Assembly: GCA_964504255.1 (NCBI GenBank)
Contig: CAZDDU010000001.1
Location: 33,843 to 97,842 of the forward strand
From: an uncultured Candidatus Saccharibacteria bacterium
GTDB taxonomy: Bacteria > Patescibacteriota > Minisyncoccia > Phycocordibacterales > Zambryskibacteraceae
Reading direction: 5' to 3'
Length of the DNA: 64,000 nucleotides
The translations under genes were made by a program, and so were the position numbers. The notes under the pieces are model-generated. The model saw only the letters and a list, made by a program, of their open reading frames with translations, was not told the DNA's origin and did not search any database. Shown here in pieces: positions 12,115-60,209 of this stretch (within the stretch, counting starts at the first letter, position 1; the number at the start of each line of letters is the position of its first letter).

Positions 12115-13053
12115 ATGTCGCAAAACATGGCCAATACTTCAGAACTAGAGAACTTGAAGAGACAGTTCCTCGAACATACCGAGATCACTCGCGGTAGAAG
12201 TTTGAAGACTGTAGAGAACTACGACAGATACTTAACTCGTTTCATCGAGTTCGCTAAAGTTAAGTCACCGAAACAAATTACCGACTCTGTTATAAGAGAG
12301 TACCGACTGTGGTTGAACAGACAGCCAGTAACGAAGAATAAAAAGAATCAGGATACGCTGAAGAGGCGAACACAGAATTACTATATGATCGCGCTTCGCG
12401 CGTTTCTTAAATACTTAGCATCTCAAAACATCTCTACCCTATCCCCCGAGCGTATAGAACTCGCCAAAGTTTCTGAAAGACATTTGGATCTAATCACACT
12501 TAACGAACTTGAGAGGTTGATGAATGCTCCCGACACATCGACACTCCAAGGACTTCGCGACAAGGCGATGCTCGAGCTCTTCTTCTCTACTGGACTTCGT
12601 GTGTCCGAACTCGCCTCTTTATCACGCGACTTAGACATTGATGCCGACGAATTCTCTATAAGAGGTAAGGGAGAGAAGGTGCGCGTGGTATTCATCTCTA
12701 CTCATGCGCGTGATGCGGTGAAACTGTATTTGAAGAAGAGAAACGACTTGGAAGACGCTATGTTTGTGAACATCGTGAAGGATCATACCAAGACCGCCCC
12801 AAGCAGACTGACCACAAGATCAATAGAGAGGATAGTGAAACACTATGCAATCAAAGCTGGAATCTCGAAAAAGGTTACACCGCACGTCATTAGGCACTCC
12901 TTTGCCACTGATCTTTTGAGCAATGGCGCTGACCTTCGTTCAGTCCAGATGCTTCTGGGTCACGCCAATATCGCCACTACTCAGATATATACCCATGTAA
13001 CTGACAAGGCTCTGCGTGACACCCACAAGAAGTTTCATAGTAAGAGGAAGTAG
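12115..13053 (+). CDS. tyrosine recombinase XerC/XerD family
   Basis: Core-binding N-domain plus catalytic HVIRHSFATDLL...LLGHANIATTQIYTHV (R-H-R-Y). Confidence 0.85.
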   Translation: MSQNMANTSELENLKRQFLEHTEITRGRSLKTVENYDRYLTRFIEFAKVKSPKQITDSVIREYRLWLNRQPVTKNKKNQDTLKRRTQNYYMIALRAFLKYLASQNISTLSPERIELAKVSERHLDLITLNELERLMNAPDTSTLQGLRDKAMLELFFSTGLRVSELASLSRDLDIDADEFSIRGKGEKVRVVFISTHARDAVKLYLKKRNDLEDAMFVNIVKDHTKTAPSRLTTRSIERIVKHYAIKAGISKKVTPHVIRHSFATDLLSNGADLRSVQMLLGHANIATTQIYTHVTDKALRDTHKKFHSKRK

Positions 13054-28318: not shown

Positions 28319-28323
28319 CTTAA

Positions 28324-29730: not shown

Positions 29731-29750
29731 TGTGTTAAAATATTTAGGAC

Positions 29751-31493: not shown

Positions 31494-31520
31494 TTCGACA
31501 AGCTCACTATAAATAACATG
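31491..31520 (+). repeat. recurrent junction element TAGTTCGACAAGCTCACTATAAATAAC immediately before the pilC ATG
   Basis: Other copies: 25539-25563, 37245-37272(-), 52008-52041, 53489-53525, 54361-54390, 59843-59867, 62545-62571. Confidence 0.7.
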
Positions 31521-32726: not shown

Positions 32727-33163
32727 TGAGAAAAAACGCTTTTACTCTCGTCGAAACGGTCTTCGCAGTGAGTATTTTTTTGATTGTAACCTTAAGTGTT
32801 TATGAGGGCTACAGCGTGCTTTATTCATCACTGTCCCTAGCTCATCTAAAGGTGGTTGCTGCCAGCTTAGTAAACGAAAGATTTGAGATAGCAAGAAATT
32901 TGCCTTACACGGATGTCGGTATAGTGAACGGCAATCCATCTGGAAAACTAATAGCTAGTCAGGTTTTAGTCAGAGACGGTATATCTTGGAATGTGGAAAC
33001 CTTGGTAGAGAATATAGACGACTCATTTGATGGTGTGAGTCCTATAGATATAAGACCTGCAGATTATAAGTTAGTTGAGATAACAGTTGCTTGTAATACA
33101 TGCAAAAATTTCACGCCAGTTAAGATATCTGGTTGGATCGCACCTAGAAATCTAGAACCATGA
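32726..33163 (+). CDS. prepilin-type N-terminal cleavage/methylation domain protein
   Basis: MRKNA|FTLVETVFAVSIFLIV class-III signal. Confidence 0.75.
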   Translation: MRKNAFTLVETVFAVSIFLIVTLSVYEGYSVLYSSLSLAHLKVVAASLVNERFEIARNLPYTDVGIVNGNPSGKLIASQVLVRDGISWNVETLVENIDDSFDGVSPIDIRPADYKLVEITVACNTCKNFTPVKISGWIAPRNLEP

Positions 33164-33771
33164 TGAAAAACAAAGGATTCACATTGCTTGAGAGTATTAT
33201 GTCCGTGGCCATTATGGTGGCAATAGTTTTTGCAGCAACATTACTAGCTAAAGATGTTTTGAGTACAAACCAGAGTGCGGTACAGAGCTTAAGTGCACAA
33301 TCAGATACCAGGAGGGCAATTAAAAGTTGGATTGCAGAGCTTCGTACTGCGACTCCATCTGCCACAGGTGCATATACTATAGAATCAGCCTCAACTAGCA
33401 GCCTAGTGTTCTTTGCTGATTTGGATAGCGACAATAGATCAGAGAGAATTAGATACTTCATTAGCACATCCACTAGATCGTTCAACAGAGGTGTGGTCTC
33501 ACCAACAGGTAGTCCACCATCGTATGTTTTGTCAGGAGAAAGTGTGATAACGATGGTTTCAGATATGGTTCAAGGTACCTCAACTCCAGTGTTTGAATAT
33601 TTCGATACGAATTATGCTGGGACAAGCTCCCCAATGACCTATCCTCTTGATGTGTCTATGATCAGATTGATTAGGGTGAACATATCGGTAGACAAGGATC
33701 CGAATCGCTCACCTGACCCACTCACGGTCTCATCAGAAGTGACTCTTAGAAATTTGAAGGATAATTTATGA
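33160..33771 (+). CDS. prepilin-type protein (pilin/pseudopilin)
   Basis: MMKNKG|FTLLESIMSVAIMVAIV. Confidence 0.75.
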   Translation: MMKNKGFTLLESIMSVAIMVAIVFAATLLAKDVLSTNQSAVQSLSAQSDTRRAIKSWIAELRTATPSATGAYTIESASTSSLVFFADLDSDNRSERIRYFISTSTRSFNRGVVSPTGSPPSYVLSGESVITMVSDMVQGTSTPVFEYFDTNYAGTSSPMTYPLDVSMIRLIRVNISVDKDPNRSPDPLTVSSEVTLRNLKDNL

Positions 33772-35213
33772 AAAAAGAAAAAGGCTTTTTGATAATTTTA
33801 GTTATGGTCTTCTCCTCAATAGCAATTGTGGCAATTATTAGTCTTATCGGTTTTGCAAACATAAACATTATTGCTGGTAGGAGGGCTATAATTAGTGAGC
33901 AGGCCTTTCAATTATCTGAAGCCGGAATTGAGTACTATCGTTGGCATTTAGCACATAGTCAAAATGACTTTACTGATGGCGGCGGGGCGTTCCCGCACTT
34001 ACATGATTTTTTCGACAGTGATGGGAACTTAGTGGGGCAGTTCGAGTTAACTGTCACAGCTCCTCCTGTTGGATCAACTCTGGTAACAATGGAATCAGTT
34101 GGTATACCCGCAGTGGATCCAAGTGTTCGTAGGACGATAGTTTCTCAGTTGGGTAAACCATCTTTTGCTAGGTTTTCTCTAGTTTCAAACTCGGACATGC
34201 GCTTCGGACAGGGAACTGTTGTTATTGGCCCAGCACACTCTAATGGGGGTATTCGTTTCGACGGTTTGGCACAAAATCTTGTTACTAGCGGTGTAGCAAA
34301 CTACAACGATCCAGACCACAGTGGCAATAACGAGTTTGGGGTGCATACCCATGTTAATGCTCCACCTGGTAGTGGCGTGAATGATACCTTTAGAGCGAGT
34401 GAGGCTCCTCCAACTAATCCTGTGCCTAATAGACCCGATGTCTTTCTTGCTGGTAGGAGGTTCCCGGTACCACTTGTCAGTTTTACTGGTATCACTTCTG
34501 ATTTAACTAACCTGAAGAACCTGGCCCAGAGTGACGGCAGATATTTCGCATCTTCCACAGCTCAGGGTTATAGAATAACTTTTAATACCAACGATACTTA
34601 CACTGTCCACCGTGTTTCGAATTTAAGAGCAGCCCCAAACAATTGTACGAATACTGCAGGTCAGACTGGGTGGGGTACTTGGACTGCGAGCACTACTGTC
34701 TTAGTTGGCACCTACGCTAATCCAAATAACGGCGTTATCTATGTGGAAGATCATGTTTGGGTAGAGGGACAGATAGACACAGCCAGAATTACCCTAGTAG
34801 CAGCTGCTACTAGTACGGGTGTGCAAAGATCAATTACGATAAATAACAATCTTCTCTATACTAACTATGATGGACAAGATGTGATATCACTAATTGCAGA
34901 AAATAATATCAATGTAGGTTTGTACAGCTTGGATAACCTAAGAGTAGATGCTGCACTTATATCAAATAATGGGAGAATAGGTAGATATTACTACGAATCA
35001 GATTGTGCTCCGAATAATACCAGATCGACTATTACTTTGTATGGCATGATCGGCAGCTATTTGAGATACGGCTTCGCCTATGTGGATGGTACAGGTTATG
35101 TAAATAGAAATCTTATTTATGATGGTAGTCTGCTTTATGCCCCACCCCCATCATTCCCTCTAACTACCAACACCTATCAGATTGTCTCTTGGCAAGAGGT
35201 CGCAGGTAATTAA
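33768..35213 (+). CDS. pilus-associated large protein with atypical N-terminal prepilin-like helix
   Basis: MKKEKGFLIILVMVFSSIAIVAII; lies in the pilin operon. Confidence 0.5.
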   Translation: MKKEKGFLIILVMVFSSIAIVAIISLIGFANINIIAGRRAIISEQAFQLSEAGIEYYRWHLAHSQNDFTDGGGAFPHLHDFFDSDGNLVGQFELTVTAPPVGSTLVTMESVGIPAVDPSVRRTIVSQLGKPSFARFSLVSNSDMRFGQGTVVIGPAHSNGGIRFDGLAQNLVTSGVANYNDPDHSGNNEFGVHTHVNAPPGSGVNDTFRASEAPPTNPVPNRPDVFLAGRRFPVPLVSFTGITSDLTNLKNLAQSDGRYFASSTAQGYRITFNTNDTYTVHRVSNLRAAPNNCTNTAGQTGWGTWTASTTVLVGTYANPNNGVIYVEDHVWVEGQIDTARITLVAAATSTGVQRSITINNNLLYTNYDGQDVISLIAENNINVGLYSLDNLRVDAALISNNGRIGRYYYESDCAPNNTRSTITLYGMIGSYLRYGFAYVDGTGYVNRNLIYDGSLLYAPPPSFPLTTNTYQIVSWQEVAGN

Positions 35214-39861: not shown

Positions 39862-40337
39862 TTATTATATTTACCGATGGGGCAGCGAGGGGGAATCCTG
39901 GTGGAGGGGGTTGGGGGGCTATTATAGCCAAGGAGTTTGAGGTTAGGGAAATAGGAGGCAAGGATCCATACACCACCAACAATAAGATGGAGCTTACTGC
40001 TGCCATAGAGGCACTTAAAACTTTAGAATTCGGAGTTGAGGTAGAGCTCTATACAGACTCAGAGTATGTCATGAAGGGGATGACTGAATGGGTATGGAAC
40101 TGGCAAAAGAATGGCTGGAAGACAGCTGCGAAGAAACCGGTAGAGAATCAGGATCTTTGGAAGGATCTTGTATCAGCCAGCGAAGGAAAAAACATTTCTT
40201 GGAAGTATGTTGCCGGTCACTCGGGGAACGAGGCAAACGAGAGATGTGATGAGATAGCGACTAAGTACGCAGACCATTTATCCGTAGAACTATATGCAGG
40301 GAGTCGGGGCGAGTACCCAATCAGTCTCAAGGCCTAA
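39858..40337 (+). CDS. rnhA: ribonuclease HI
   Basis: IFTDGAARGNPGGGGWGAII, TNNKMELTAAIEAL, SGNEANERCDEIA. Confidence 0.9.
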   Translation: MIIIFTDGAARGNPGGGGWGAIIAKEFEVREIGGKDPYTTNNKMELTAAIEALKTLEFGVEVELYTDSEYVMKGMTEWVWNWQKNGWKTAAKKPVENQDLWKDLVSASEGKNISWKYVAGHSGNEANERCDEIATKYADHLSVELYAGSRGEYPISLKA

Positions 40338-41751
40338 TCTTAAAATCCTTCTAGCACTCTGGGGATTCATCTTTGGTATTCTCTTCGCTTCAATAATTTC
40401 GATACACCCCCTTGTATCTATCCTGATTATCTTTGTCGCGCTAACCATTTATGTATTGGATAGAAATGTTTTTATTTTAATAATACTGGTTGCTTTATCC
40501 TTAGGAATACTCAGATACGATATCAAAGACTTTCATGAGTTGTCGCCAGCGGGGAATATGGGTGTAGTGGTGTCCGAGCCCGAGAGCAGAGACAAAGACA
40601 CTCGTTATGCGGTTCTTACTAATACTAGAGAAAAAGTTTTGGTCACTGACGAGATCTTTAGCAAGGTTGAATATGGAGATGAAGTTAAGTGGATAGGAAC
40701 TCCTAAGACTCTAAAACCCGGTGGCTATGCCAACTATTTAGCCAAGGATGATATTTTCTACACCCTTGAGAGAGCGAAGGTGGAGATTGTTTCTCACGAT
40801 AAAGGAAACAGTGTTAAGAGCACTCTCATCAAGGTTAAAAGGTTTCTCACTGACAAAGTTAAAAGTATCTTGCCCGAGCCTGAGGCCAGCCTCCTCTCGG
40901 GCCTAATCGTCTCGGGCAAGCAAGCATTACCCAAAGAAACTTTAGAGAGCTTCAAGGATGCTGGAGTGGTACATATGGTCGTGCTCTCGGGTTACAACAT
41001 TACGATAATCGCTGAATTCTTGCTCATCGTCTTTGCGTTTCTTGGTTCTAGAATTTCAGGCTTTATCGCACTTGGGGGAGTAGTGCTCTTTACTATTATG
41101 TCTGGAGCGCCTGCGACGGTCGTTCGGGGTGCCATTATGGTTTCGTTCCTCTTGCTCGGCCGATTGATGAAACGACCCGGCTCGCCACCAAGAATACTTC
41201 TCTTCACTGCGGTATTGATGCTCCTACACAACCCAAAGATTCTGCTCTATGACCCATCCTTCCAGCTCTCATTCCTCGCTGTGCTCGGACTTATATACGG
41301 TACCCCTCTTGTCGAAAAGCTATTTGCCTCTCACGGTCAAGAGGGAAATTCGAGACAAACAGTTTTTCGACTTCGAGAATTAGTTTCCACCACTTTAGCT
41401 ACACAGCTCTTTGTCTTACCACTTCTTTTATATAGCATGGGCAACTTCTCACTCGTGTTCCTCTTCGCCAATATTCTTATCTTGCCCATTCTCCCAATCG
41501 TCATGCTCATCGGATTCATTGGCACACTACTTTCATTTGTACTTGGTGTCTTGGCTATGCCTATTAACTTCATTACTCACTTGCTACTCGCATACATACT
41601 TAAGGTTGCGGATTTCTTTGGTAACTTACCATTTGCGAGTTTAGAAATAGAAAACTTCCCCTTGTGGGGAAGTTTGGTGATGTATGCGTTGATATTTATT
41701 ATCGTCTGGCATTCTCGAAATTCATCTCCACGCTCTCCCAGTTTAGATTAG
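40294..41751 (+). CDS. comEC: ComEC/Rec2 DNA-internalisation channel, membrane part (DUF4131 + competence domain); no MBL domain in this ORF
   Basis: Multi-TM; LSGLIVSGKQALPKETLESFKDAGVVHMVVLSGYNITII competence motif; start may lie downstream of 40294. Confidence 0.75.
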   Translation: MQGVGASTQSVSRPNLKILLALWGFIFGILFASIISIHPLVSILIIFVALTIYVLDRNVFILIILVALSLGILRYDIKDFHELSPAGNMGVVVSEPESRDKDTRYAVLTNTREKVLVTDEIFSKVEYGDEVKWIGTPKTLKPGGYANYLAKDDIFYTLERAKVEIVSHDKGNSVKSTLIKVKRFLTDKVKSILPEPEASLLSGLIVSGKQALPKETLESFKDAGVVHMVVLSGYNITIIAEFLLIVFAFLGSRISGFIALGGVVLFTIMSGAPATVVRGAIMVSFLLLGRLMKRPGSPPRILLFTAVLMLLHNPKILLYDPSFQLSFLAVLGLIYGTPLVEKLFASHGQEGNSRQTVFRLRELVSTTLATQLFVLPLLLYSMGNFSLVFLFANILILPILPIVMLIGFIGTLLSFVLGVLAMPINFITHLLLAYILKVADFFGNLPFASLEIENFPLWGSLVMYALIFIIVWHSRNSSPRSPSLD

Positions 41752-48066: not shown

Positions 48067-48095
48067 ATAAAGTAAGTTAGAAAGACAAAACCTTC

Positions 48096-48124
48096 TTGAC
48101 AATCTAGGAGGTTTGTGCTATTAT
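48096..48124 (+). promoter_or_regulatory. near-consensus sigma70 promoter driving the GC-rich SPFH gene
   Basis: TTGACA - 17 nt - TATTAT; AAGGAGG SD 8 nt before the ATG at 48212. Confidence 0.6.
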
Positions 48125-48211
48125 CGAAGTAGAGTACTTTTAGTTGTAAGTTGTGTGTACATGCTTCAAATTCGTAGGTCCACGTAGTTCCCCCTCAAGG
48201 AGGAGTTTCGA

Positions 48212-49273
48212 ATGCCCGGGTTGAAGTTCGTTCTCAACGCTGTTGTCGTACTGCTCTTGGTCTACATCTCGAGCTTCGCGTTCGACCTCATGAACTACCC
48301 CGACGACTTCGCGGTCGCCGGAGGGATCGCCATCCTCGTGGTGGAGTTCCTGGTGGCGATGTACATGATCAAGAAGAACCCCTTCTCCGCGATCTCTCGC
48401 AAGGGAGCGAGCGGGAAGAAGAAGCCGACGAACAAGACGGCGGCCATCATGCTGATCGTCGGTATCGTCGGGGCAAACACGGCCTGCTATCAGGTCGTCG
48501 AGCCCGGACACGCTGGGATCAAGATCAACATGGCCGGTAGTGACCGAGGTGTCTCTGACATCACGGTCCAGACCGGACGTGTGTGGTACAACCCGGTCAA
48601 TACGCGGGTGTTCGAATACCCGACCTTCGTCCAGACAGCTGTTTGGAAGAGGGATTCGGAGCTGAACGAAGAGATCTCGTTCAACAGCAAGGAAGGAATC
48701 ACCTTCACCGCTGATCTGTCGCTTTCGTGGCAGATCCAGACTGACAAGGTGCCGAACTTCTACGTCATGTTCCGCAACGATGATGTGACGGCGTTCACGC
48801 ACGGGTTCCTTCGGAACATCGCGCGCGACGCCTTCACCGAGATCGCGCCCAGTTACACAAGCGAAGAGATCTACAGCACCAAGATGGGCGAACTCGTCAC
48901 TCGGGTCAAGGCCCGCACGGACTCGCTCATCGTCGCATACGGCGTGCATCTCCAGCAGTTCGGCTTCATCGGAGCCCCTCGCCCACCTGAGAACATCGTC
49001 AAGTCTCTCAACCTGAAGACCCAGGCGATCCAGGACGCGAGTGCGGCCGAGAACAAGCTCCGGCAGACGACTGCCGAAGCTCGGATGGCTGTTGCAAAGG
49101 CGCAGGGCGAGGCAGAGGCTAATCGCGCCCTTGCCAGCTCCCTCACCACTTCGATGCTCGAGTGGCGAAGACTGGAGATCACCGAGCAGAGCATCAAGAA
49201 GTGGGATGGGAAGTTGCCGGTCTATTCCGGTGGTACACTTCCCCTGATCCAACTGCCGACGCCGAATCGGTAA
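48212..49273 (+). CDS. SPFH/band-7 (HflC/stomatin-like) membrane protein; GC-rich
   Basis: N-terminal TM; SPFH core (ELNEEISFNSKEGITFTADLSLSWQI...) and AEARMAVAKAQGEAEANRAL coiled-coil tail; about 60% GC versus about 45% in flanks. Confidence 0.7.
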   Translation: MPGLKFVLNAVVVLLLVYISSFAFDLMNYPDDFAVAGGIAILVVEFLVAMYMIKKNPFSAISRKGASGKKKPTNKTAAIMLIVGIVGANTACYQVVEPGHAGIKINMAGSDRGVSDITVQTGRVWYNPVNTRVFEYPTFVQTAVWKRDSELNEEISFNSKEGITFTADLSLSWQIQTDKVPNFYVMFRNDDVTAFTHGFLRNIARDAFTEIAPSYTSEEIYSTKMGELVTRVKARTDSLIVAYGVHLQQFGFIGAPRPPENIVKSLNLKTQAIQDASAAENKLRQTTAEARMAVAKAQGEAEANRALASSLTTSMLEWRRLEITEQSIKKWDGKLPVYSGGTLPLIQLPTPNR

Positions 49274-49339
49274 CTAAGCCGCAAGATGTAAGGAAAAGTC
49301 GTTCGACTGCTCCACATCGAGCGGCTTTTCTGTTGTGTT

Positions 49340-49368
49340 TTGACAACTAGGGAGTTTTGCTTTAACTT
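49340..49368 (+). promoter_or_regulatory. sigma70-like promoter upstream of the cold-shock gene
   Basis: TTGACA - 16/17 nt - TTAACT/TAACTT. Confidence 0.45.
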
Positions 49369-49512
49369 ACGACACAGACTTGTAGGACGACGAGCAATCC
49401 AGCCGTCGAACGATAGGGGGCAGCAATAGTGCACATGTCTCGGAGTAGCGGACAGGCTCGCGCGGGTGCTCATGGTCACAGGGGCAACAAGCGTCGAAGC
49501 AAGAAACCGAAG

Positions 49513-49749
49513 AGCATGCCTGTGAGTCTGCTTGTCTCGGAGAGGCAGCACGGAGTGGTGAAGTGGTTCAGTGAGAGTATGGGCTACGGCTTCATCGGTC
49601 GGAAGAAGGGGACTCCCGATGTCTTCGTCCATTACTCGAGTATTCTCGGCACCGGCTTCAAGAGCCTCGCCGAAGGCAACAGGGTTGCCTTCGATGTCGA
49701 GAGGACGAAGAAGGGTCTCGCGGCTACGAATGTGAGGGTTGTGGACTAA
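49513..49749 (+). CDS. cold-shock domain protein (CspA family); GC-rich; long 5' UTR
   Basis: GVVKWFSESMGYGFI RNP1 motif, VFVHYS RNP2 motif; start chosen at internal Met (track ORF starts at 49429). Confidence 0.75.
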   Translation, partial: SMPVSLLVSERQHGVVKWFSESMGYGFIGRKKGTPDVFVHYSSILGTGFKSLAEGNRVAFDVERTKKGLAATNVRVVD

Positions 49750-49750
49750 T

Positions 49751-49777
49751 CCCGCCAAATGGCGGGTTTTTCTTTTC
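49751..49777 (+). terminator. intrinsic terminator after csp
   Basis: CCCGCCaaatGGCGGG followed by TTTTTCTTTTC. Confidence 0.7.
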
Positions 49778-49819
49778 TAGATCCTCATGTATAGTGCTTA
49801 ACAGGCCCTTATTCCGGAG

Positions 49820-50194
49820 GTGGGGATGTACACGGATGGTAGTATTGGTGGTGATGAGGAGACGGTGGGGAGGGATGCTCAACCTATCACAGCTGAGGAG
49901 TGGATCATTCTCGAGAGACTCTTCTCGAGCGATCGCACAAGGGAGGTGTTGGTGGCCCTTCGCCTGAACGACAACGATCCCGTCGAGGTGTCGGAGTTCA
50001 CTGAGATCCGCTTCACGAGGAGTGTCCTCGGGGGTATGTGTTCTGTCCTCACCCGAGAGAAGGTTGAATTAACCCTAGCTCTGCTTTACCCCAAGAAGCC
50101 CATGCGGGCTAACAAGGTCTTCTTCAAGCGAGTGGTGAGACCCAAGGTCACCGACTTCCAAATGTCTCAGATTCGAGCTGCGCCCTGTCACTAG
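49820..50194 (+). CDS. hypothetical protein, GC-rich
   Basis: 124 aa; about 55% GC; no motif recognised. Confidence 0.45.
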   Translation: MGMYTDGSIGGDEETVGRDAQPITAEEWIILERLFSSDRTREVLVALRLNDNDPVEVSEFTEIRFTRSVLGGMCSVLTREKVELTLALLYPKKPMRANKVFFKRVVRPKVTDFQMSQIRAAPCH

Positions 50195-50210
50195 ACGGGG
50201 CTTTTTCTTT
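50182..50210 (+). terminator. intrinsic terminator after hypothetical gene
   Basis: GCCCTGTCactaGACGGGGC followed by TTTTTCTTT. Confidence 0.55.
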
Positions 50211-50217
50211 GCTGGGA

Positions 50218-50246
50218 TTGACTATTATTGGGCTAAACAGTAATAT
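50218..50246 (+). promoter_or_regulatory. near-consensus sigma70 promoter about 175 nt upstream of tuf
   Basis: TTGACT - 17 nt - TAATAT. Confidence 0.55.
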
Positions 50247-50420
50247 GTCGCGAGCGCTATACCGCTTCTGCTTGTTCTTTGAGGCCTCTCAATATGGGCT
50301 GAGCTAAGCGGTTTTGCGTTCCTCGTCACTACGAGGTTGAATCGGAACTGGAAGAAGATGTGTTCTCGAACTTCTTCTGTTTCTGAAAAACTTAATTAAT
50401 TAAATTTATACATAAAATAT

Positions 50421-54362: not shown

Positions 54363-54395
54363 CAGGTCCGCTCACTACAAGTAAGAACCAAAAAA

Positions 54396-54419
54396 ACTCG
54401 CTCAAGGGCGAGTTTTTTG
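54396..54419 (+). terminator. intrinsic terminator (copy 1 of 3 identical hairpins)
   Basis: ACTCGCtcaaggGCGAGT followed by TTTTTTG. Confidence 0.75.
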
Positions 54420-54459
54420 TTAAGGTGGTGGGAGATACGACCTCAACCAGGAGCCCATT

Positions 54460-54843
54460 ATGTCTAAAAGGCATGGTACCGCCAGACCAGTTGGTTCTTT
54501 CCGTGATGGAGATGTTGTTAAGGGTAAAATAATCACCGTCTTTGCAACTACTCGTAATACCGATCTCGCCGAAGGTCGCGGCCAAACAATTGACCATTCA
54601 TATCATTTGAGCGCGCACGACGCGAAGACTGGAGCTCATGGTATCGATGTGATGGGATCAGATGGTAAGACCAAAGAAGTTTTGGCTCTTCAAGAAGACG
54701 AAAGCGGGAGAGTTTATCTCTTCGCCAACAACTCTTCACCGGTTACCATTAAAGAGGATCCTGAAGCACTTGCCAAACTTCGGAAAAGCGCCTTCAACAA
54801 GTTGAGTTCTAGTGAGAGGGCGGCACTGAATCTTGGTGATTAG
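54460..54843 (+). CDS. hypothetical small protein (cassette between rplB and rplJ)
   Basis: 127 aa, no motif recognised. Confidence 0.45.
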   Translation: MSKRHGTARPVGSFRDGDVVKGKIITVFATTRNTDLAEGRGQTIDHSYHLSAHDAKTGAHGIDVMGSDGKTKEVLALQEDESGRVYLFANNSSPVTIKEDPEALAKLRKSAFNKLSSSERAALNLGD

Positions 54844-54858
54844 ATCTTGTTGGTCATG

Positions 54859-54881
54859 ACTCGCTCAAGGGCGAGTTTTTT
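54859..54881 (+). terminator. intrinsic terminator (copy 2, identical hairpin)
   Basis: ACTCGCTCAAGGGCGAGTTTTTTG. Confidence 0.75.
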
Positions 54882-54895
54882 GATATATTCGACAA

Positions 54896-55384
54896 ATGAA
54901 AAAATTAGATAAAAAGGCTGTTTGGTTGTTCTTCCTTCAGTACGTTTGGAGCTTTGTTTACCTTGGAGCTTTCGTGGTCGCTATTACACTTTCTGCTCTT
55001 GATGGGGAGATTTCTGTTATGGCGGTACTTAACCTGATTGGCTGGGTTCTGCTGACCGTATTACTTGTTTCCTATTTTGTATCACATCTTGCTTACAAGT
55101 TTTATCTATACGAACTTTCGAATATTGGGTTCAAAAAGGAATCTGGAATTATTTGGAAGCAGTATGTCACCATCCCTTACGATAGAATTCAGAATGTAGA
55201 TATTTATCGAGGAGTTCTAGCAAGAATCCTTGGTCTCTCGGACCTGCAAATTCACACCGCTGGAGTTGGTGGAGTAGCGATGGGTGAAGGTAGGTTACCT
55301 GGACTCTCGATGGCCGATGCGGAAGTAATGCGAGATGAGCTAATAAACAGATCTAGACAATCAAGATCAGGTCAGGGTCTTTAA
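54896..55384 (+). CDS. bacterial PH-domain (bPH_2/YdbS-like) membrane protein
   Basis: Two TM helices then YVTIPYDRIQNVDIYRGVLARILGLSDLQIHTAG, typical of the bPH_2 fold. Confidence 0.6.
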   Translation: MKKLDKKAVWLFFLQYVWSFVYLGAFVVAITLSALDGEISVMAVLNLIGWVLLTVLLVSYFVSHLAYKFYLYELSNIGFKKESGIIWKQYVTIPYDRIQNVDIYRGVLARILGLSDLQIHTAGVGGVAMGEGRLPGLSMADAEVMRDELINRSRQSRSGQGL

Positions 55385-55391
55385 AGAAAAA

Positions 55392-55414
55392 ACTCGCTCA
55401 AGGGCGAGTTTTTT
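55392..55414 (+). terminator. intrinsic terminator (copy 3, identical hairpin)
   Basis: ACTCGCTCAAGGGCGAGTTTTTTG. Confidence 0.75.
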
Positions 55415-55450
55415 GATAGTCTCAAGGCAGACGACTCCAGGGAGGATTAA

Positions 55451-55669
55451 ATGGCGCATGGGCCTTTAGTGTTGACGATCAATCGAGATGAAGAGCGGGC
55501 GCTTAAGTTCGCAGAAGAAGTAGTAGAGCGATGTCCAGAAGTTCGCGTGAGCAAGATGATTGATTTCGGTCCACCAGAACTCTGCCATGGGATTGGTCGC
55601 TACATCTGGCCGGAAGGCAAGATCAGGAAGTTTTTGAACAAGAAGTTCAATTTGGAGCCCCCGCTGTGA
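55451..55669 (+). CDS. small hypothetical protein (72 aa) with GGGAGG SD
   Basis: SD GGGAGG 7 nt upstream; terminator AGCCCCcgctgtgaGGGGCT + TTTTTC at 55656-55679. Confidence 0.45.
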   Translation: MAHGPLVLTINRDEERALKFAEEVVERCPEVRVSKMIDFGPPELCHGIGRYIWPEGKIRKFLNKKFNLEPPL

Positions 55670-55689
55670 GGGGCTTTTTCTTATCTACA

Positions 55690-55887
55690 CATTTATACCA
55701 AGGCCCGGCCTTGGTAAGGGGAGGTTGTCAGGGTAGGCAAATTGATGTAGAGTAGTCGACAAAGGTCAAAGACAGAAGGCCCTTCGAATACCTCAGGGTA
55801 AACGATATAAGCCCTTCCGAGATCACTCTCAATCCGAGACCTTTGTGGTCGATTTTATTTGTCTAAATAACAGACAAACACAAAACA
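55690..55887 (+). promoter_or_regulatory. candidate ribosomal protein L10 leader (autoregulatory 5' UTR of rplJ-rplL)
   Basis: About 200-nt structured ORF-less region directly upstream of rplJ, begins with perfect hairpin ACCAAGGCCcgGGCCTTGGT; identity by position only. Confidence 0.35.
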
Positions 55888-56376
55888 ATGGCAATTAATA
55901 AACAAAAGAAAGGAGAGATCATAGATAAGCTCTCGAAGGCTGTCAAGGATGCAAAGTCCTTGGTCTTCGTGAACTTCCATGGACTCAAGGTATCCGACAC
56001 TACCAACCTCAGGCGCGAGCTTAGGAAGGAGGGTGTGGAGTACCAAGTATCTAAGAAGACTCTCACCAAGCGCGTACTCGATTCCGAGAAGTTTGAGGGC
56101 ACAATGCCCGAACTCGAGGGCGAGCTCGCTATGGCATGGAGTGAGGATCTCATCGCACCTGCACGAGGTGTACACACTTTCGCTAAGAAATTTCCAGAGG
56201 CTCTAAAGATCCTTGGAGGAGTCTTCGAAGGTAGGTATATGAGTAAGGCAGAGATGATGGAGATCGCTACCATACCTCCAGTTGAGGTACTTAGAGGTAA
56301 GTTTGTAAACATTATTAACTCACCAATCCAGCGCTTCGCAATAGCTCTTGGAGAGGTAGCAAAGAAGAAAAATTAA
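55888..56376 (+). CDS. rplJ: 50S ribosomal protein L10
   Basis: [45 protein letters not shown]. Confidence 0.9.
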
Positions 56377-56377
56377 A

Positions 56378-56737
56378 ATGACAAAAGAACAAATCATCGA
56401 GGCAGTTGAGAAGTTGTCAGTCCTCGAACTCAACACACTCGTAAAGGCAATTGAGGAGAAGTGGGGAGTATCAGCTACAGCGGTTGCTGCCGCTGGTCCT
56501 GCCGCTGGTCCTGCTGAGGAGGCTAAGAGTACAGCCGATGTAGAACTTACTGACGGCGGTGCAAACAAGATTGCAGTCATCAAGGTCGTGAAGGAAGTAC
56601 TAGGACTTGGTCTCAAGGAGGCTAAGGACATGGTAGACGGTGCTCCAGCAATGCTTAAGGCCGGTATGAAGAAGGAGGACGCCGACGCTCTTAAGAAGAA
56701 GATCGAGGAGGCTGGTGGAAAGGTTACTCTTAAGTAA
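56378..56737 (+). CDS. rplL: 50S ribosomal protein L7/L12
   Basis: [31 protein letters not shown]...[22 protein letters not shown]. Confidence 0.95.
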
Positions 56738-56763
56738 GTTTTCTCCAAAAGTTTCTCATCACA

Positions 56764-56790
56764 AAACTCCCCGAAAGGGGAGTTTTGTTC
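56764..56790 (+). terminator. intrinsic terminator after rplL
   Basis: AAACTCCCCgaaaGGGGAGTTT followed by TGTTC. Confidence 0.7.
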
Positions 56791-56831
56791 ATACTAGCGC
56801 TTTCGGGGGAGTGGGAGTAAAATACGCCCAC

Positions 56832-57404
56832 ATGGGGAAATCAATTTCACACTTATTTGGGAGTGAAGCGAAGGTCAAGATCATGCGTCTCTTTGTCTTC
56901 AACAAAGGATCAATATTTACTGCGAAGACTATTAGCGAGAGAGTGCAGGCAAGTGCCAAGGTGGTGAGGAAGGAGCTCACTAGTCTTATCAAGGCTGGTC
57001 TTGTATATAAGAGAGCAAGGGGTTATGTCCTTAATGCTGAGTATGACTATCTTAAGGCGGTAGAACGATTCTTGATCGAGGCCACACCAATCTCGGAGAA
57101 GGAGATCATAAGGAAGCTCTCTAAGGCGGGTAGTATGCGACTCATCCTTACTTCCGGCGTCTTCAAGCAGGACTCTGAGGCTAGAGTAGATCTACTTGTG
57201 GTGGGGGATAAGATCAAGGAGAGCACTCTTCTTCGCGCTATTAGCTCTCTTGAGGCAGATTTGGGCAAGGAGCTCCGCTTTGCGGCCTTTGAGACTCCTG
57301 ATTTCAAGTACCGCCTAGGTATATATGACAAACTTGTTCGCGACATCTTAGACTATCCACACAGGAAATTGGTCGATAAGGTCGGTCTCCAACCTAAGGT
57401 ATAA
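56832..57404 (+). CDS. winged-helix domain protein, function unknown
   Basis: TISERVQASAKVVRKELTSLIKAGLV wHTH-like N-terminus; start at Met40 of track ORF. Confidence 0.5.
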   Translation: MGKSISHLFGSEAKVKIMRLFVFNKGSIFTAKTISERVQASAKVVRKELTSLIKAGLVYKRARGYVLNAEYDYLKAVERFLIEATPISEKEIIRKLSKAGSMRLILTSGVFKQDSEARVDLLVVGDKIKESTLLRAISSLEADLGKELRFAAFETPDFKYRLGIYDKLVRDILDYPHRKLVDKVGLQPKV

Positions 57405-57455
57405 TATTTAGAAGCCCGCAAGGGCATTACTAGATAAACTGTACAGTAAGGATTT

Positions 57456-58148
57456 ATGTATATCAGCAACTGGGGAAACGTGCTTACGCTCTCGTTCCAG
57501 AATCTCTGGATGGGTATCGTTAGTTTCGTCCCGAACCTTGTCGTCGCGCTTATCATCGTCATTCTCGGATGGCTCGTTGGCGCATTGCTCGGCCGGGCAA
57601 TTTGGCAAGTGTTCCGCTCTTTGAAGGTTGACGAAGCACTTCGTCGCGCAGGATTCGAAGGATTCCTCCGCCGTGGTGGTGTTGATCTTGACTCGGGCGC
57701 GTTTATTGGCGGTCTTGTAAAGTGGTTTGTAGTAGTTGTTTTCTTGGTAGCGGCCTTCGACGTTCTCGGCCTTACTCAGGTTAACCTCTTCCTACAGCAG
57801 GTTGTTATAGCTTACCTTCCTCGCGTTATCGTAGCCGCTTTGGTCATCCTCGTTGGAGGTGTCATCGGCGACGTAGTCGAGAGAGTTGTAGTTACAGCAG
57901 CTCGTACTGCAGAGATTCGCTCAGCACACTTCGCTGGAGCAGTGTCTAAGTGGGCGGTTTGGGTCTTCGCTATATTGGTAGCGCTTTCTCAACTCGGCAT
58001 CGCAACGGCTTTCAGCCAGACACTCTTCACCGGTATCGTTATCGCTATCTCACTAGCACTTGGTCTCTCCTTTGGTCTTGGTGGCCAGGAGGCAGCAGCT
58101 CGATTCATCGAGAGGCTCCGAGGCGACATGGGTGGCAAGCACAACTAA
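57456..58148 (+). CDS. membrane protein with duplicated conserved-TM-helix repeats (MscS-N-terminal-like)
   Basis: Two repeats of amphipathic-helix + TM segments; elevated GC (about 54%). Confidence 0.5.
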   Translation: MYISNWGNVLTLSFQNLWMGIVSFVPNLVVALIIVILGWLVGALLGRAIWQVFRSLKVDEALRRAGFEGFLRRGGVDLDSGAFIGGLVKWFVVVVFLVAAFDVLGLTQVNLFLQQVVIAYLPRVIVAALVILVGGVIGDVVERVVVTAARTAEIRSAHFAGAVSKWAVWVFAILVALSQLGIATAFSQTLFTGIVIAISLALGLSFGLGGQEAAARFIERLRGDMGGKHN

Positions 58149-58184
58149 TCAGGGTATTTCGCTAGATAATACCTAGATAACAAA

Positions 58185-58209
58185 AAGAGGCTCTAAACAG
58201 CCTCTTTTT
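58185..58209 (+). terminator. intrinsic terminator
   Basis: AAGAGGCTctaaacAGCCTCTT followed by TTTTG. Confidence 0.7.
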
Positions 58210-58225
58210 GCTACTTATAAATTGC

Positions 58226-58254
58226 TTGACAAGTAGGGCGAAGTATGCTAAGGT
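58226..58254 (+). promoter_or_regulatory. sigma70-like promoter of GC-rich cassette gene A
   Basis: TTGACA - 17 nt - TAAGGT; AGGAGG SD 7 nt before the ATG at 58316. Confidence 0.5.
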
Positions 58255-58315
58255 TAATACAGTAGTTTCCCGTTCCTTCAGCAGCAAAGGCACCCAACTT
58301 CTAGGAGGCAGTCGT

Positions 58316-58951
58316 ATGACCAAGCCCGCCAAGCAGTCGAAGCCCCAGTCCACGCGCTTCTCGCTCGACCACGATGGGCTCACCGAGTTCCTCGTAGCGT
58401 TCCAGATCATCTGGGCCGCGGTGCGGGCGCTCTACAAGGGTCCCCACGGCGAGAACGACCAGACGCGGAACTTCGTCCGACGCATGGAGCAGATGGTCCG
58501 GCACGCCAGCCCTCTCCTCGAGGACGGCGAGACCGACCACAACTCCTACGAGAAGACGATCAAGCTCGGCGCGGCGCTCATGCGCCAGATCGAGGAGTAC
58601 ATCGACGACATCCTCGATTCCGACCGCGCGAGGGAGTTCTTCGACCGCGCTTCGAGCGAGATCCAGGAGATCTGGCCCGAGGTCTGGGCGGCGAAGAAGA
58701 ACGAGATCCTCGAGAGCCGTGCCCGCTTCCAGCAGGCGAACGCCTCGGAGACCGCGGAGGACCTCAAGAAGATCGTCCTCGCATACAACGCGACGACCGA
58801 GCTCCTTGCCAGGGCCAAGGCCGAGGCCGAGAACAAGGCGTCTGCCGAAGCCAACCGTCTCCGTCAGGCGAAGGAGGCTCAGGAGAAGCTCGCCCGGTTC
58901 GAGAAGAACCGCACGCGCGGCCGCTCTGTCCTGGCCCAGCTCTCGGCCTGA
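58316..58951 (+). CDS. hypothetical protein A, very GC-rich (about 65%), coiled-coil C-half; C-terminal tail RTRGRSVLAQLSA
   Basis: Diverse amino-acid composition on + strand versus L/R/G-rich antisense ORF; SD AGGAGG. Confidence 0.6.
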   Translation: MTKPAKQSKPQSTRFSLDHDGLTEFLVAFQIIWAAVRALYKGPHGENDQTRNFVRRMEQMVRHASPLLEDGETDHNSYEKTIKLGAALMRQIEEYIDDILDSDRAREFFDRASSEIQEIWPEVWAAKKNEILESRARFQQANASETAEDLKKIVLAYNATTELLARAKAEAENKASAEANRLRQAKEAQEKLARFEKNRTRGRSVLAQLSA

Positions 58952-58992
58952 ACTGCACAACGCACGCTAACGCGTGCCCGCCCCACGAAAGT

Positions 58993-59019
58993 CCCCACGG
59001 ACAATCGTGGGGCTTTCTT
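58993..59019 (+). terminator. intrinsic terminator after gene A
   Basis: CCCCACGgacaatCGTGGGG followed by CTTTCTT; second hairpin GCACGCtaaGCGTGC just upstream. Confidence 0.6.
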
Positions 59020-59028
59020 ATTCATACA

Positions 59029-59057
59029 TTGACATTACTGCTATATTGTGATAATAT
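59029..59057 (+). promoter_or_regulatory. consensus sigma70 promoter of GC-rich cassette gene B
   Basis: TTGACA - 17 nt - TAATAT. Confidence 0.6.
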
Positions 59058-59118
59058 TAAATTAGATAAGCATTGTCTTAGCTGTACTTGAACAACTTAC
59101 CCTATTCCGGAGTTCTTG

Positions 59119-59700
59119 ATGAACCAGAAGAAGGCTGTTTCCGAACGAGCCCTGGGCTCTGTCCCGGTGGTCATGTTCTTCCTCAACGTGAACGGCGAGC
59201 ACCTCGTCCCCGACTCGGCGACGAAGGTTCCCGACAACCAGACGGCAGGGAAGTCACACACCGGTAAGCCCGGTATCATGCTCTGCCAAGGCAAGTCGGT
59301 GGATCTCGAGGGAGCACTCAAGGAGATCGAGCTCCGAGGGTACCTCCCCAAGAAGTTCACCTCCATCCATCGGTTCCAAGGAATCATGCATCGCATGGTG
59401 CTCGTCTGCGTTCACAAGGACGCGCCCGACAACGGCGAGGCGGCGAGCTTCACCGCCGAGCAGAGGGAGGATTTCCTCAAGCTGCTTCAGGGCTACAACT
59501 GGGACACCACCGTCTACCGGAATTTCTCCGAGACGGGAGGTAACTTCATCCTCATGGCCGGCAACCCCGATCGCCGGGAGGAGAAGGAGATCCTTCGGGT
59601 GAACGACGCGAACGAGTTCGAGATGGTGGATGCGGAGAAGGTCAAGACCGACCAGTCTCGGACGCGTGGTCGGGAAGCCCTCTCGCAGATCAGCGCGTAG
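59119..59700 (+). CDS. hypothetical protein B, GC-rich; C-terminal tail RTRGREALSQISA
   Basis: 193 aa; GGAG SD; shares a 12-aa C-terminal motif with gene A. Confidence 0.6.
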   Translation: MNQKKAVSERALGSVPVVMFFLNVNGEHLVPDSATKVPDNQTAGKSHTGKPGIMLCQGKSVDLEGALKEIELRGYLPKKFTSIHRFQGIMHRMVLVCVHKDAPDNGEAASFTAEQREDFLKLLQGYNWDTTVYRNFSETGGNFILMAGNPDRREEKEILRVNDANEFEMVDAEKVKTDQSRTRGREALSQISA

Positions 59701-59729
59701 GATCAGTTGGTGAGCCCTTCCTCGGGCTA

Positions 59730-59754
59730 GGCCGTCACATTGTGACGGCCTTTT
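59730..59754 (+). terminator. intrinsic terminator after gene B
   Basis: GGCCGTCACattGTGACGGCC followed by TTTTAC. Confidence 0.7.
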
Positions 59755-59776
59755 ACTTATCTATTGTTGCCCTCGT

Positions 59777-59805
59777 TTGACAATAGAGCCCCATTTCTAT
59801 ACTAT
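59777..59805 (+). promoter_or_regulatory. sigma70-like promoter upstream of rpsS
   Basis: TTGACA - 17 nt - TACTAT. Confidence 0.5.
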
Positions 59806-59864
59806 ATTTGCCTACGTCCCGCATGCGGGATTAAGTTTTAAATAGTTCGAATACCTAACTTAAA

Positions 59865-60209
59865 GTGACCAGATCAAGCAAAAAAGGACCATATGTAGAC
59901 CCTCGCGTGATGAAGAAGATCGAGGGCAAGAAGCCAGGCGAAACCGGGGTTATTAAGACCTGGTCTCGCGCATGCCAAATCGCTCCAGAGATGATCGGAT
60001 TCACCTTCGGAGTGCACAACGGTCGCGACCATGTCGAGGTCTTCGTCACAGAGGACATGATCGGTCACAGACTAGGTGAGTTCTCACTCACTCGTAAGTT
60101 CGTGAAGCACGGTGGTAAGATGCAGAAGGATATTGAGTCTAAGGCTAAGGAGGCCGAGATCAACGCAGCTAAGGCAGCTAAGGCTTCTACCGACACTAAG
60201 AAGAAATAA
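59865..60209 (+). CDS. rpsS: 30S ribosomal protein S19 (GTG start, Lys/Ala-rich C-terminal extension)
   Basis: [15 protein letters not shown]...GHRLGEF. Confidence 0.9.

Follow-up and report, generated by a model that had tools for sequence, protein, structure and literature searches.

A co-varying C-terminal tail on two unrelated proteins encoded at a ribosomal-cluster hotspot of a Zambryskibacteria-like Parcubacterium

Among the closest described counterparts of the locus analyzed here are the cargo encapsulation peptides of BMCs (PduP, PduD, EutC, and CcmN), in which a short terminal amphipathic helix is attached through a poorly conserved linker and has a common binding partner. Encapsulin loading peptides are extended motifs rich in Gly, Ser, Leu, and Ile. 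Further points of comparison are the paxillin LD motifs, Leu-rich amphipathic helices of 8 to 10 residues with charged flanks that dock on the FAT four-helix bundle, and the C-terminal membrane-targeting sequences (MTS) of MinD and FtsA. We analyzed a 64-kb stretch of DNA (the window), corresponding to less than ~10% of the genome, from a tiny Zambryskibacteria-like Parcubacterium (CPR). In this window, two adjacent genes, A and B, encode proteins with a common C-terminal tail; in some relatives, A is accompanied by a gene of another family, C. The comparison with known systems can be described as follows. (i) Like BMC encapsulation peptides, the tail is a terminal amphipathic helix that follows a variable charged linker, is common to co-encoded unrelated proteins, and has a similar hydrophobic moment, but no BMC-H or BMC-P shell genes are seen in the window, the tail is present on two proteins only, A itself appears to be the hub, and the tail charge flips between lineages. 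(ii) As in encapsulin systems, a conserved C-terminal peptide is found behind a flexible linker on unrelated proteins encoded side by side, but no HK97-fold shell gene was detected nearby by a Pfam scan of ~40 window ORFs, and the A/B tail is helical and differs in sequence from the known consensus. (iii) The docking site of the LD motifs is a helical bundle, a structure that A also contains. Three other candidates were rejected, namely, an ssrA-like/ClpX degron (LAA-like), since the extreme C terminus is not conserved and the window contains no Clp/Lon; PEP-CTERM/LPXTG-type sorting, since there is no NCBIfam or Pfam match and inspection reveals neither a transmembrane stretch in the tail nor an N-terminal signal peptide; and known anti-phage defense, since PADLOC has no match for A, B, C, or the neighboring hotspot families.

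A and B are located in a variable cassette hotspot between the gene for a small MS-channel-like membrane protein (MS) and the promoter of rpsS (Table 1). The first-pass annotation had placed both genes in a 5.5-kb insertion between rplB and rpsS. The size of this interval is correct (from the end of rplB at 54362 to the start of rpsS at 59865), but it is not a single insertion. Its older part, a block present throughout the clade, consists of rplJ-rplL, a wHTH gene, and the MS gene, and variation is limited to the last 1.7 kb. MS and rpsS are ~200 nt apart, with no cassettes between them, in ~20 relatives, and the site is filled with 0.85 to 2.9 kb of cassettes in ~14 relatives. The order MS, A, B, rpsS was found repeatedly in independent assemblies (ENA, Logan, JGI, and NCBI), and MS|rpsS is the site of the A/B genes in every readable context. 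At the upstream edge, the stem pairs of the GGTATT-N9-AATACC hairpin are unchanged in 7/7 aligned cassette-bearing lineages, and relatives without cassettes keep a recognizable TAGCTAG-TAATACC core, with the 3' arm substituted in some of them. At the downstream edge, the rpsS -10 motif TATACTATA is unchanged in 14/14 aligned lineages, whether they contain cassettes or not, and 12/14 have the -35 box TTGACA. Two fixed hotspots, fusA|tuf and MS|rpsS, emerge from the comparison of lineages, and both collect strain-variable single-gene units with their own promoters. Such single-gene units at a fixed site, with strain-variable content, resemble the cassettes of integrons and genomic islands, but here every unit comes with a promoter and a terminator of its own, and the families are confined to the lineage. 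An integron array was rejected, as there are no attC-like repeats at the cassette borders, where the shared elements are promoters and terminators only, and no adjacent integrase; the only tyrosine recombinase in the window is Xer-like (12115-13053). The neighbors of A and B are ribosomal-protein, wHTH, and MS genes. An Rfam search of positions 57900-60000 gave no match, and literature searches on Zambryskibacteria, Parcubacteria, and ribosomal operons yielded no relevant work.

TABLE 1 Position of the features of the MS|rpsS hotspot in the window
Feature	Position	Strand	Details
Hairpin GGTATT-N9-AATACC	58153..58173	+	Directly 3' of the MS stop codon; upstream hotspot edge
MS gene intrinsic terminator	58182..58209	+	Hairpin and T-run; compensatory stem changes among lineages
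Gene A promoter	58226..58254	+	TTGACA (58226-58231), 17-nt spacer, TGc-TAAGGT (58246-58254)
Gene A 5' leader	58262..58315	+	Conserved; CCUUC (58275-58279) predicted to pair with Shine-Dalgarno AGGAGG (58303-58308)
Gene A	58316-58951	+	211 aa, all-helical orphan; orthologs with the same synteny
A tail RTRGRSVLAQLSA	58910..58948	+	Best-conserved stretch in the C-terminal third of A
Gene A terminator	58981..59021	+	CCCCACG...CGTGGGG followed by T-run; scan match at 58993-59012
Gene B promoter	59029..59057	+	TTGACA-17-TAATAT with extended -10 TG; scan, 10/12 matches
Gene B	59119-59700	+	193 aa, alpha/beta orphan; orthologs 66-100% identical
B tail RTRGREALSQISA	59659..59697	+	After charged linker; invariant or nearly so in B orthologs
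Gene B terminator	59729..59760	+	Scan (span 59729-59751): 10-bp stem, 7 GC pairs, T-run
rpsS promoter	59777..59805	+	TTGACA-17-TACTAT; scan match; downstream hotspot edge

The A protein consists of a disordered basic N terminus, a helical bundle, and a long charged helix, and its AF2 model (pLDDT 74.8) contains six helices. The A orthologs are 69 to 100% identical, with synteny kept, and dN/dS values of 0.53 to 0.59 indicate fast evolution; the A proteins of the clade with acidic tails (see below) are just 16 to 22% identical to that of the window. The A family is small, with 18 representatives in a set of 1.84 billion proteins, and searches of 5.8 billion proteins returned 4 or 5 matches per query. 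For B, relatives at 38 to 42% identity are found in two lineages (L019 and L033), a scan of a genome collection gave no match, and the AF2 model was unusable (pLDDT 36). B may be a remote relative of the hotspot family C, as suggested by an hhalign comparison (E value of 3e-4, probability of 39%) and by a W-x3-V-[YW]-x-N-P motif common to B and C. The profile searches on both proteins that had been suggested at first reading identified no family: A, B, C, and the neighboring hotspot families have no match in Pfam, PHROGs, NCBIfam, or PADLOC, and sequence-profile searches of the PDB returned nothing. For A, there was also no significant fold match, and the weak, nonsignificant matches include FAT, CCM3, and LD-motif complexes.

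Both genes were initially described as autonomous expression units, and we reach the same conclusion, since each has its own promoter, Shine-Dalgarno (SD) sequence (AGGAGG and GGAG), and terminator. The -10 box of the gene A promoter is weak, which is why a consensus scan did not call this promoter, and both of its hexamers are nearly invariant in seven lineages (the window, L002, L014, L001, L104, L105, and L101). According to RNAalifold, a 5-bp anti-SD/SD helix in the gene A leader is kept in 5 to 7 of seven lineages, depending on the base pair, and the leader is more conserved than the A protein. The stem of the gene A terminator is unchanged in eight lineages, the acidic-tail clade among them, and the -35 box and a TGTGATA motif are kept upstream of the B or C genes in eight lineages. 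Promoter, leader, and terminator are native to the lineage, in which the cassettes are long established.

The first-pass annotation had also reported a GC content of ~60 to 65% for both genes versus ~45% for their surroundings, which agrees with our values of 0.653 (A) and 0.603 (B) versus 0.464 for the window. At third codon positions, the values are 0.92 for A and 0.835 for B compared with 0.40 to 0.61 for neighboring genes, and this GC3 excess persists in 15/15 lineages. Several potential causes were rejected. (i) A recent transfer from a high-GC donor, i.e., the implied view that the GC-rich genes were recently inserted from a foreign source, conflicts with the tiny size of the family, the use of the same MS|rpsS site throughout, the native and conserved promoter, leader, and terminator, the high GC3 in 15 lineages, and scans of viral contigs with B and C, which revealed no relatives; the cassettes are old and native. 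Ordinary horizontal transfer does not explain the gene-limited GC3 excess. (ii) An antisense gene is not the cause either, since the 219-amino-acid antisense ORF (58301-58960) is not open in L018, L023, L096, and L104. (iii) Codon optimization to the host was discarded, since T or A is favored at 4-fold sites and CGG is avoided in the ribosomal-protein genes of the host, in contrast to A and B, in which C or G and also CGG are used; the one match to the host is the preference for the Leu codon CTC over CTG.

The A protein ends in ...NRTRGRSVLAQLSA and the B protein in ...SRTRGREALSQISA, each directly before the stop codon. Nine of the last 13 residues are identical, and no other of the 2,556 pairs formed by the 72 window genes has more than 6 identities in 13 C-terminal positions, which excludes chance. 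As proposed earlier, the tail is conserved as protein and not as copied DNA, since the codon is the same for only 2 of the 9 shared residues and the two tails agree at 23 of 39 nucleotides; no long identical DNA stretch was present in any A-B/C tail pair. A BLASTP alignment of A and B is convincing at the tail only. The tail occurs in two forms, RTRGRxxLxQ[LI]SA and IGxx[IL]LxELxGL, with the common core G-x-x-[hydrophobic]-L-x-x-[L/I]-x-[A/G/S], and is predicted to be a short amphipathic helix. All 25 sequences of the A family that were examined end in a comparable segment, which is weak or atypical in a few. The linkers that precede the B/C tails are charged (EKVKTDQS, EEEEE, and EDDED). No other ORF of at least 60 amino acids in the window and related loci (4,796 ORFs, including those of the window) contains the motif. 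There is a loose resemblance between the tails and the C terminus of the MS protein, which ranks fourth in this respect among the 72 window genes.

The comparison of lineages showed the pairing of the two proteins, a rule for the presence or absence of the tail, and the co-variation of the tails. In a scan of 8,200 ORFs with HMM profiles of A, B, and C, the B/C gene has the tail in 12/12 distinct lineages in which it is complete and adjacent to an A gene, compared to 0/10 lineages that contain B/C without an A gene, in which there is also no remnant 3' of the stop codon (Fisher's exact test, p of ~1.5e-6, kinship of the lineages ignored). Where A is alone (L105 and L020), it keeps its terminal helix. 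The C gene of L028 is without a tail and is nested among tailed C genes at 47 to 52% identity, implying at least two independent events of gain or loss. The B/C tail follows that of the resident A protein, being basic in one clade and acidic in another. The respective A and B-or-C tails are RTRGRSVLAQLSA and RTRGREALSQISA in the window, REKGREILALLSA and RERGLEILKSLSG in L018, RRKGLELVSRLSA and KRKGLELIRKLMAS in L102, IGRAVLDELEGLEID and IADELLDELKGLRVA in L096, and MGQAILEELDGLEID and LGNELLQEIKGLRI in L097. Tails scored on average 30.7 with their own partner versus 18.9 with nonpartners (permutation p = 6e-5), a co-variation that stems largely from two clades and three or four finer events, i.e., from few independent events. 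Within the basic-tail clade, A is partnered either by a B-type gene (window and L102) or by a C-type gene (L018 and L104), and the partner tail matches that of A in all cases. Comparing the charge of the A body with that of the tail yielded candidate receptor columns, which are confounded by clade structure. Taken together, the data bear out the initial idea that the tail marks A and B as one system, in that 12 independent lineages combine A with a tailed B/C protein and the tails co-vary. They suggest that the tail is a private, co-evolving tag that links A and B rather than a general sorting signal. The options of a general sorting signal, a compartment-loading peptide, or a degron, which had been raised at first, are not supported: the motif is private, no gene for a shell, a protease of the Clp/Lon type, or dedicated secretion is nearby, the charge flips, and the C termini are not conserved within the family (...LSA, ...LVV, ...LEID, ...LRVA, ...LEGI, and ...AIEF).

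We consider that there is about an even chance that A and B form a lineage-restricted two-gene module in which B/C mimics the A tail in order to dock on an A-centered complex. For the helical protein A, the tail would be intrinsic and form its last helix, and the globular neighbor of B or C type would bear a copy of it behind its charged linker. The A tail would dock within an A-centered assembly, either in its own helical bundle or on an adjoining A subunit. The B/C tail would occupy the same site and thus be recruited to A or compete with it. We propose that the tails of A and B/C change together because both fit a single co-evolving receptor. That both tails of a pair have like charges argues against simple tail-to-tail pairing but does not thereby prove docking on A. 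In this scheme, the docking itself, the nature of the receptor, and a role in the cell are inferred.

A considerably less probable alternative is that the tail is read by a third component encoded elsewhere, such as a compartment shell of the kind that recognizes encapsulin or BMC cargo peptides, an export route, or a protease adaptor, and that A and B/C are co-clients that do not bind each other. The order of a globular domain, a charged linker, and a terminal amphipathic helix corresponds to that of BMC encapsulation peptides, the like-charged tails suggest one common receptor, A keeps its tail when alone, and the 64 kb of visible DNA are only part of the genome. However, the motif is confined to A and B/C among the ORFs of the window and of the related loci scanned, and the search for a shell, protease, or secretion partner was negative, since none of these was detected by the Pfam scan of the ~40 window ORFs, be it a shell gene, a Clp/Lon gene, or a gene dedicated to secretion; only genes for type IV pili and competence, ~25 kb away, turned up. 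Moreover, the B/C tail is absent exactly where A is absent, which is hard to explain with a receptor independent of A, and the switch from basic to acidic tails between clades would require the receptor to co-vary, unlike conserved housekeeping machines.

We consider it improbable that the tail acts like the amphipathic MTS of MinD or FtsA and would bring both proteins to the membrane, perhaps close to the adjacent MS-like channel protein. The C-terminal helix of ~10 residues is preceded by basic residues in the window clade, as in the MinD/FtsA MTS, its hydrophobic moment (0.29 to 0.60) is comparable to that of the Escherichia coli MinD MTS (0.45), a membrane-protein gene is located directly upstream, and there is the loose tail likeness of the MS C terminus. 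However, the tails of half of the lineages, including the sister clade, are net acidic (-3 to -5) and fit poorly to anionic membranes, the hydrophobic face, made up of V/A, L, L/I, and A, is weak, the MS protein ranks only fourth, and its tail does not co-vary with those of A and B. Nor does membrane targeting account for the need of B/C for a tail solely alongside A. A cationic membrane-targeting helix conserved across the family is also not what was found, as the net charge of the tail ranges from +4 to -5 across the A family.

There is an equally slim chance that the similarity of the tails is functionless and due to gene conversion or a 3'-end duplication between GC-rich neighbors or to a convergent amphipathic composition. 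A and B are 170 nt apart in the same orientation, some tails contain short identical DNA runs (ctcgagctc in L102), and L018, L102, and L097 have five identical codons each. The window pair, however, shares only the 2 identical codons, with no run long enough for homologous recombination, and purifying selection is stronger on the tail than on the rest of A; the 12/12 versus 0/10 rule, together with the swapping of partners, requires selection. It is hardly plausible that A and B are diverged paralogs with the tail as their last shared helix: a weak BLASTP alignment of 81 residues extends up to the tail (E value of 0.001 in a single comparison), but this alignment has 26% identity and 16% gaps and owes its signal to the tail, A is all helical and B is mixed alpha/beta, the A HMM matches no B/C ORF and the B/C HMMs match no A ORF, and tail-less B/C homologs exist, so that the two proteins are otherwise unrelated, as first proposed.

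As for the docking of B/C on an A-centered complex, an accessory role of the module, related to conflict or stress, would be in keeping with its fast evolution and its location in a hotspot. More speculatively, and with a small probability, the tail could be the address label of an unrecognized CPR protein-organizing system. This system would comprise A as a scaffold, self-assembly being one option, and interchangeable clients, encoded in promoter-to-terminator cassettes that are swapped at fixed ribosomal-cluster hotspots and whose GC3 is kept up in situ by a locus-specific process, such as GC-biased gene conversion or selection on mRNA. Shared terminal peptides are the way in which cells address proteins to compartments, scaffolds, and machines. 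In the present case, it appears that one of the two proteins bearing the tag is also its receptor, and partner families that can replace one another have acquired the tag by grafting. The tag has co-evolved with its partner, even to the point of charge reversal, and the pair thus illustrates, in compact and natural form, how proteins are recruited in a modular way in the poorly understood CPR. The long-lived, gene-limited GC3 excess may be a useful case in which to test whether GC-biased gene conversion or selection at the mRNA level operates in small genomes.

Genes A and B, two adjacent GC-rich orphan genes, lie between the MS gene, which encodes a small MS-channel-like membrane protein, and rpsS, and their proteins end in similar C-terminal peptides (tails), namely, NRTRGRSVLAQLSA in A and SRTRGREALSQISA in B. 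Nine of the 13 tail residues are identical, and only 2 of these 9 use the same codon. No other pair among the 72 window genes (2,556 pairs in all) exceeded 6 of 13 C-terminal identities, and the motif terminates no other ORF of the window in any frame. The tail is the best-conserved portion of the C-terminal third of A, a protein that evolves fast overall: its dN/dS is 0.53 to 0.59, compared with 0.16 to 0.28 in B and no more than 0.16 in flanking genes. The first-pass annotation had held that the tail is kept at the protein level and is not copied DNA, and this is borne out: since paired tails share DNA runs of at most 9 nt, homogenization by recombination is unlikely, and it is on the peptide that selection acts. 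Its description of a GC-rich pair with individual promoters and terminators also stands. A consensus scan detected the promoter of B, both terminators, and the rpsS promoter; the A promoter (TTGACA, 17 nt, TGc-TAAGGT) was not called because its -10 element is too weak, yet it is conserved across lineages. The ribosome-binding context CCyTATTCCGGAG is common to B and the orphan gene of the fusA-tuf spacer, just upstream of their starts.

Coordinates of features in the window
Feature	Position	Strand	Remark
Type IV pilus/competence neighborhood	26063-35213
751-aa protein	26063-28318		Peptidase_S74 chaperone domain
T2SSE ATPase	29751-31493
T2SSF platform protein	31518-32726
ComEC	40294-41751		competence
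fusA-tuf hotspot	48067-50420
SPFH-like/phrog_200 gene	48212-49273		GC3 0.80
Cold-shock protein gene	about 49537-49749
Orphan gene	49820-50194		RBS context 49812-49829 (approximate)
rplJ-rplL/wHTH/MS arrangement	54363-58148
Terminator ACTCGCTCAAGGGCGAGTTTTTTG, three copies	54395-54418, 54860-54883, 55392-55415 (approximate)		after rplB, orf127, bPH-domain gene
rplJ-rplL	55888-56737		in S10 cluster, between rplB and rpsS
wHTH gene	56832-57404		in S10 cluster, between rplB and rpsS
MS gene	57456-58148		Pfam MS_channel_1st_1 helix
Hairpin GGTATT-N9-AATACC	58153-58173		directly 3' of MS stop codon
A promoter, TTGACA	58226-58231
A 5' leader	58262-58315		predicted anti-SD/SD helix, CCUUC 58275-58279 with 58303-58308
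Antisense ORF over A	58301-58960	-	219 aa
Gene A	58316-58951	+	211 aa; GC 0.653, GC3 0.92
A terminator			CCCCACG...CGTGGGG
Gene B	59119-59700	+	193 aa; GC 0.603, GC3 0.835; RBS context 59101-59118 (approximate)
rpsS	59865-60209		downstream bound of A/B interval

The MS protein query retrieved 80 loci from Parcubacteria/Paceibacterota genomes, many labeled Zambryskibacteria, including a 99.6 to 100% identical contig of "Parcubacteria group bacterium AMR_MDS_5570." The order rplB, small ORFs, rplJ, rplL, wHTH, MS, and rpsS is common to this clade (the rplJ-rplL/wHTH/MS arrangement recurs, for example, in the related loci L002, L097, L102, and L104), so that the supposed 5.5-kb insertion splitting the S10 operon is rather an old rearrangement. 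Only about 200 nt separate MS from rpsS in about 20 relatives, and about 14 others carry 0.85 to 2.9 kb of extra genes between the MS terminator and an invariant rpsS promoter; the interval is thus an insertion hotspot. The stem of the hairpin behind MS is invariant in the aligned cassette-bearing lineages, and a recognizable core persists in cassette-less relatives. Several public assemblies break exactly at this interval, with contigs ending about 100 to 200 nt past MS in L016, L031, L058, L059, L073, and L084, which would fit assembly breakage caused by strain heterogeneity there. The hotspot also holds a low-GC family whose proteins have 335 or 506 aa (L102:4691-5698, L020:11564-13084, and L047:10770-12275); it has no match in Pfam and ends in ...[KR]K[LI][LI]E[LV]GLSE.., with a faint likeness to acidic tails.

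Neither A nor B matched Pfam, PHROGs, NCBIfam, PADLOC, or any PDB sequence. When 5.8 billion proteins were searched with a word index, A and B each had four relatives, every one of them in the same synteny, and an exhaustive HMMER search with the A profile over 1.84 billion representatives returned 18 proteins, all of 190 to 225 aa; every A relative with readable context is located between MS and rpsS. BLASTP clustering of the hotspot genes delimited three families, A, B (window gene B, L019, L033, and L102), and C (L018, L022, L023, L024, L026, L028, L030, L032, L048, L096 to L098, and L104). B and C share the motif W-x3-V-[YW]-x-N-P (hhalign E value, 3e-4; probability, 39%) and are possibly remote relatives. 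The structure model of B is unusable (pLDDT 36) and indicates mixed alpha/beta. Two C-family genes (L048:10869-11435 and L037:11560-12168) look circularly permuted, with the N-terminal strand motif (LVKFFFTN..VPAGIERIDR) at the C terminus.

HMMs of A, B, and C were searched against 8,200 ORFs from all loci. Where A precedes a complete partner gene of the B or C type, the partner carries the tail behind a charged linker (12 of 12 distinct lineages), whereas partners without A end before it (10 of 10), and no tail remnant lies 3' of the stop codon of these lone genes, where the DNA consists of terminator and rpsS promoter. A tail-less protein (L028) is 47 to 52% identical to tailed C proteins, so that no fewer than two independent events must underlie the correlation. 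A itself keeps its terminal helix when alone (L105) or ahead of the unrelated 506-aa gene (L020), and all 25 A-family sequences examined have a short amphipathic end, ...[I/L/V]-L-x-x-[L/I]-x-x, weak or atypical in a few. The alternative foreseen initially, that the tail is simply the last conserved helix of one family, thus holds within A; on B and C it is an add-on that follows the presence of A.

The two tails also covary (see the pairs below). In a score matrix of A tails against partner tails, the mean was 30.7 for own partners versus 18.9 for nonpartners (permutation P = 6e-5), and the matrix separates into a basic and an acidic block. The own partner ranked top in the window, L018, L102, and L097. 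In the basic clade, A is paired with a B-type protein in the window and L102 and with a C-type protein in L018 and L104, and the partner tail matches the resident A every time.

Tails of A and its partner
Locus	A	Partner
Window	RTRGRSVLAQLSA	RTRGREALSQISA
L001	RKRGRSAIAQLSA	RTRGREALERIKA
L018	REKGREILALLSA	RERGLEILKSLSG
L102	RRKGLELVSRLSA	KRKGLELIRKLMAS
L104	RKRGKSILSELVV	LEAKRLLERLRS
L096	IGRAVLDELEGLEID	IADELLDELKGLRVA
L097	MGQAILEELDGLEID	LGNELLQEIKGLRI
L022, L023, L098	acidic	acidic

A private docking peptide fits these observations best. The tail belongs to A, its mimic is borne by B or C only where A is present, and both would bind one co-evolving putative site on an A-centered assembly. 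Because the two tails match in charge, a receptor common to both is favored over pairing of one tail with the other. With eight residues, the hydrophobic core lacks the length needed for a coiled coil; it resembles helix-in-groove motifs. That the tail is read by a third party, be it a shell, an export route, or a protease, is less likely, given that the motif was found nowhere else in the available sequence, that tail loss follows A loss, and that the 64-kb window holds none of the partners envisaged at first pass (shell protein, protease, or secretion or export component). Membrane targeting is unlikely, as the tails are acidic in half of the lineages. The closest known kinds of docking peptide are the encapsulation peptides of BMCs, whose architecture matches, the loading peptides of encapsulins, and LD-motif-type helices. 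However, the partner genes that define the BMC and encapsulin systems are missing from the visible sequence and their motifs differ, so that the module is placed in none of these classes.

Only third codon positions in the coding sequences carry the GC excess; promoters, leaders, and terminators are host-like in composition. Window GC is 0.464, and GC3 is 0.37 to 0.61 in the twelve genes around A and B; across 15 of 15 lineages GC3 was 0.69 to 0.92 in A and 0.37 to 0.66 in flanking genes. The promoter, leader, and terminator of A are strikingly well conserved, even where the A proteins are only 16 to 30% identical. The leader, which has no match in Rfam, is more conserved than the protein, and the SD is predicted to be sequestered. 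Host codon optimization does not account for the excess: 89% of four-fold sites are C or G in A versus 70% T or A in host ribosomal-protein genes, A uses CGG, and only the preference for Leu CTC, far above CTG, is host-like. No donor lineage appeared among 1.84 billion proteins, and a recent origin by transfer from a high-GC organism therefore lacks support. The antisense ORF over A has 0.90 GC at first codon positions and is interrupted in several orthologues, and is thus an artifact of high GC3. Candidate causes are GC-biased gene conversion at a recombination hotspot or mRNA selection.

The fusA-tuf spacer is a second cassette hotspot. Its three genes are GC-rich single-gene units, and every unit has a TTGACA promoter and a terminator to itself. 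The spacer spans 164 to 2,550 nt across relatives and 1,090 nt, without the SPFH gene, in the near-identical strain L016. The type IV pilus and competence genes of the window are typical of CPR genomes and have no link to the shared tail.

The family is tiny, and the tail pattern is robust and neat. The GC3 excess is persistent and unexplained, and the genes are housed in a promoter-to-terminator cassette hotspot. A and its B- or C-type partner appear to constitute a two-protein module that is orphan, restricted to CPR bacteria, and marked by a shared tail that co-evolves.
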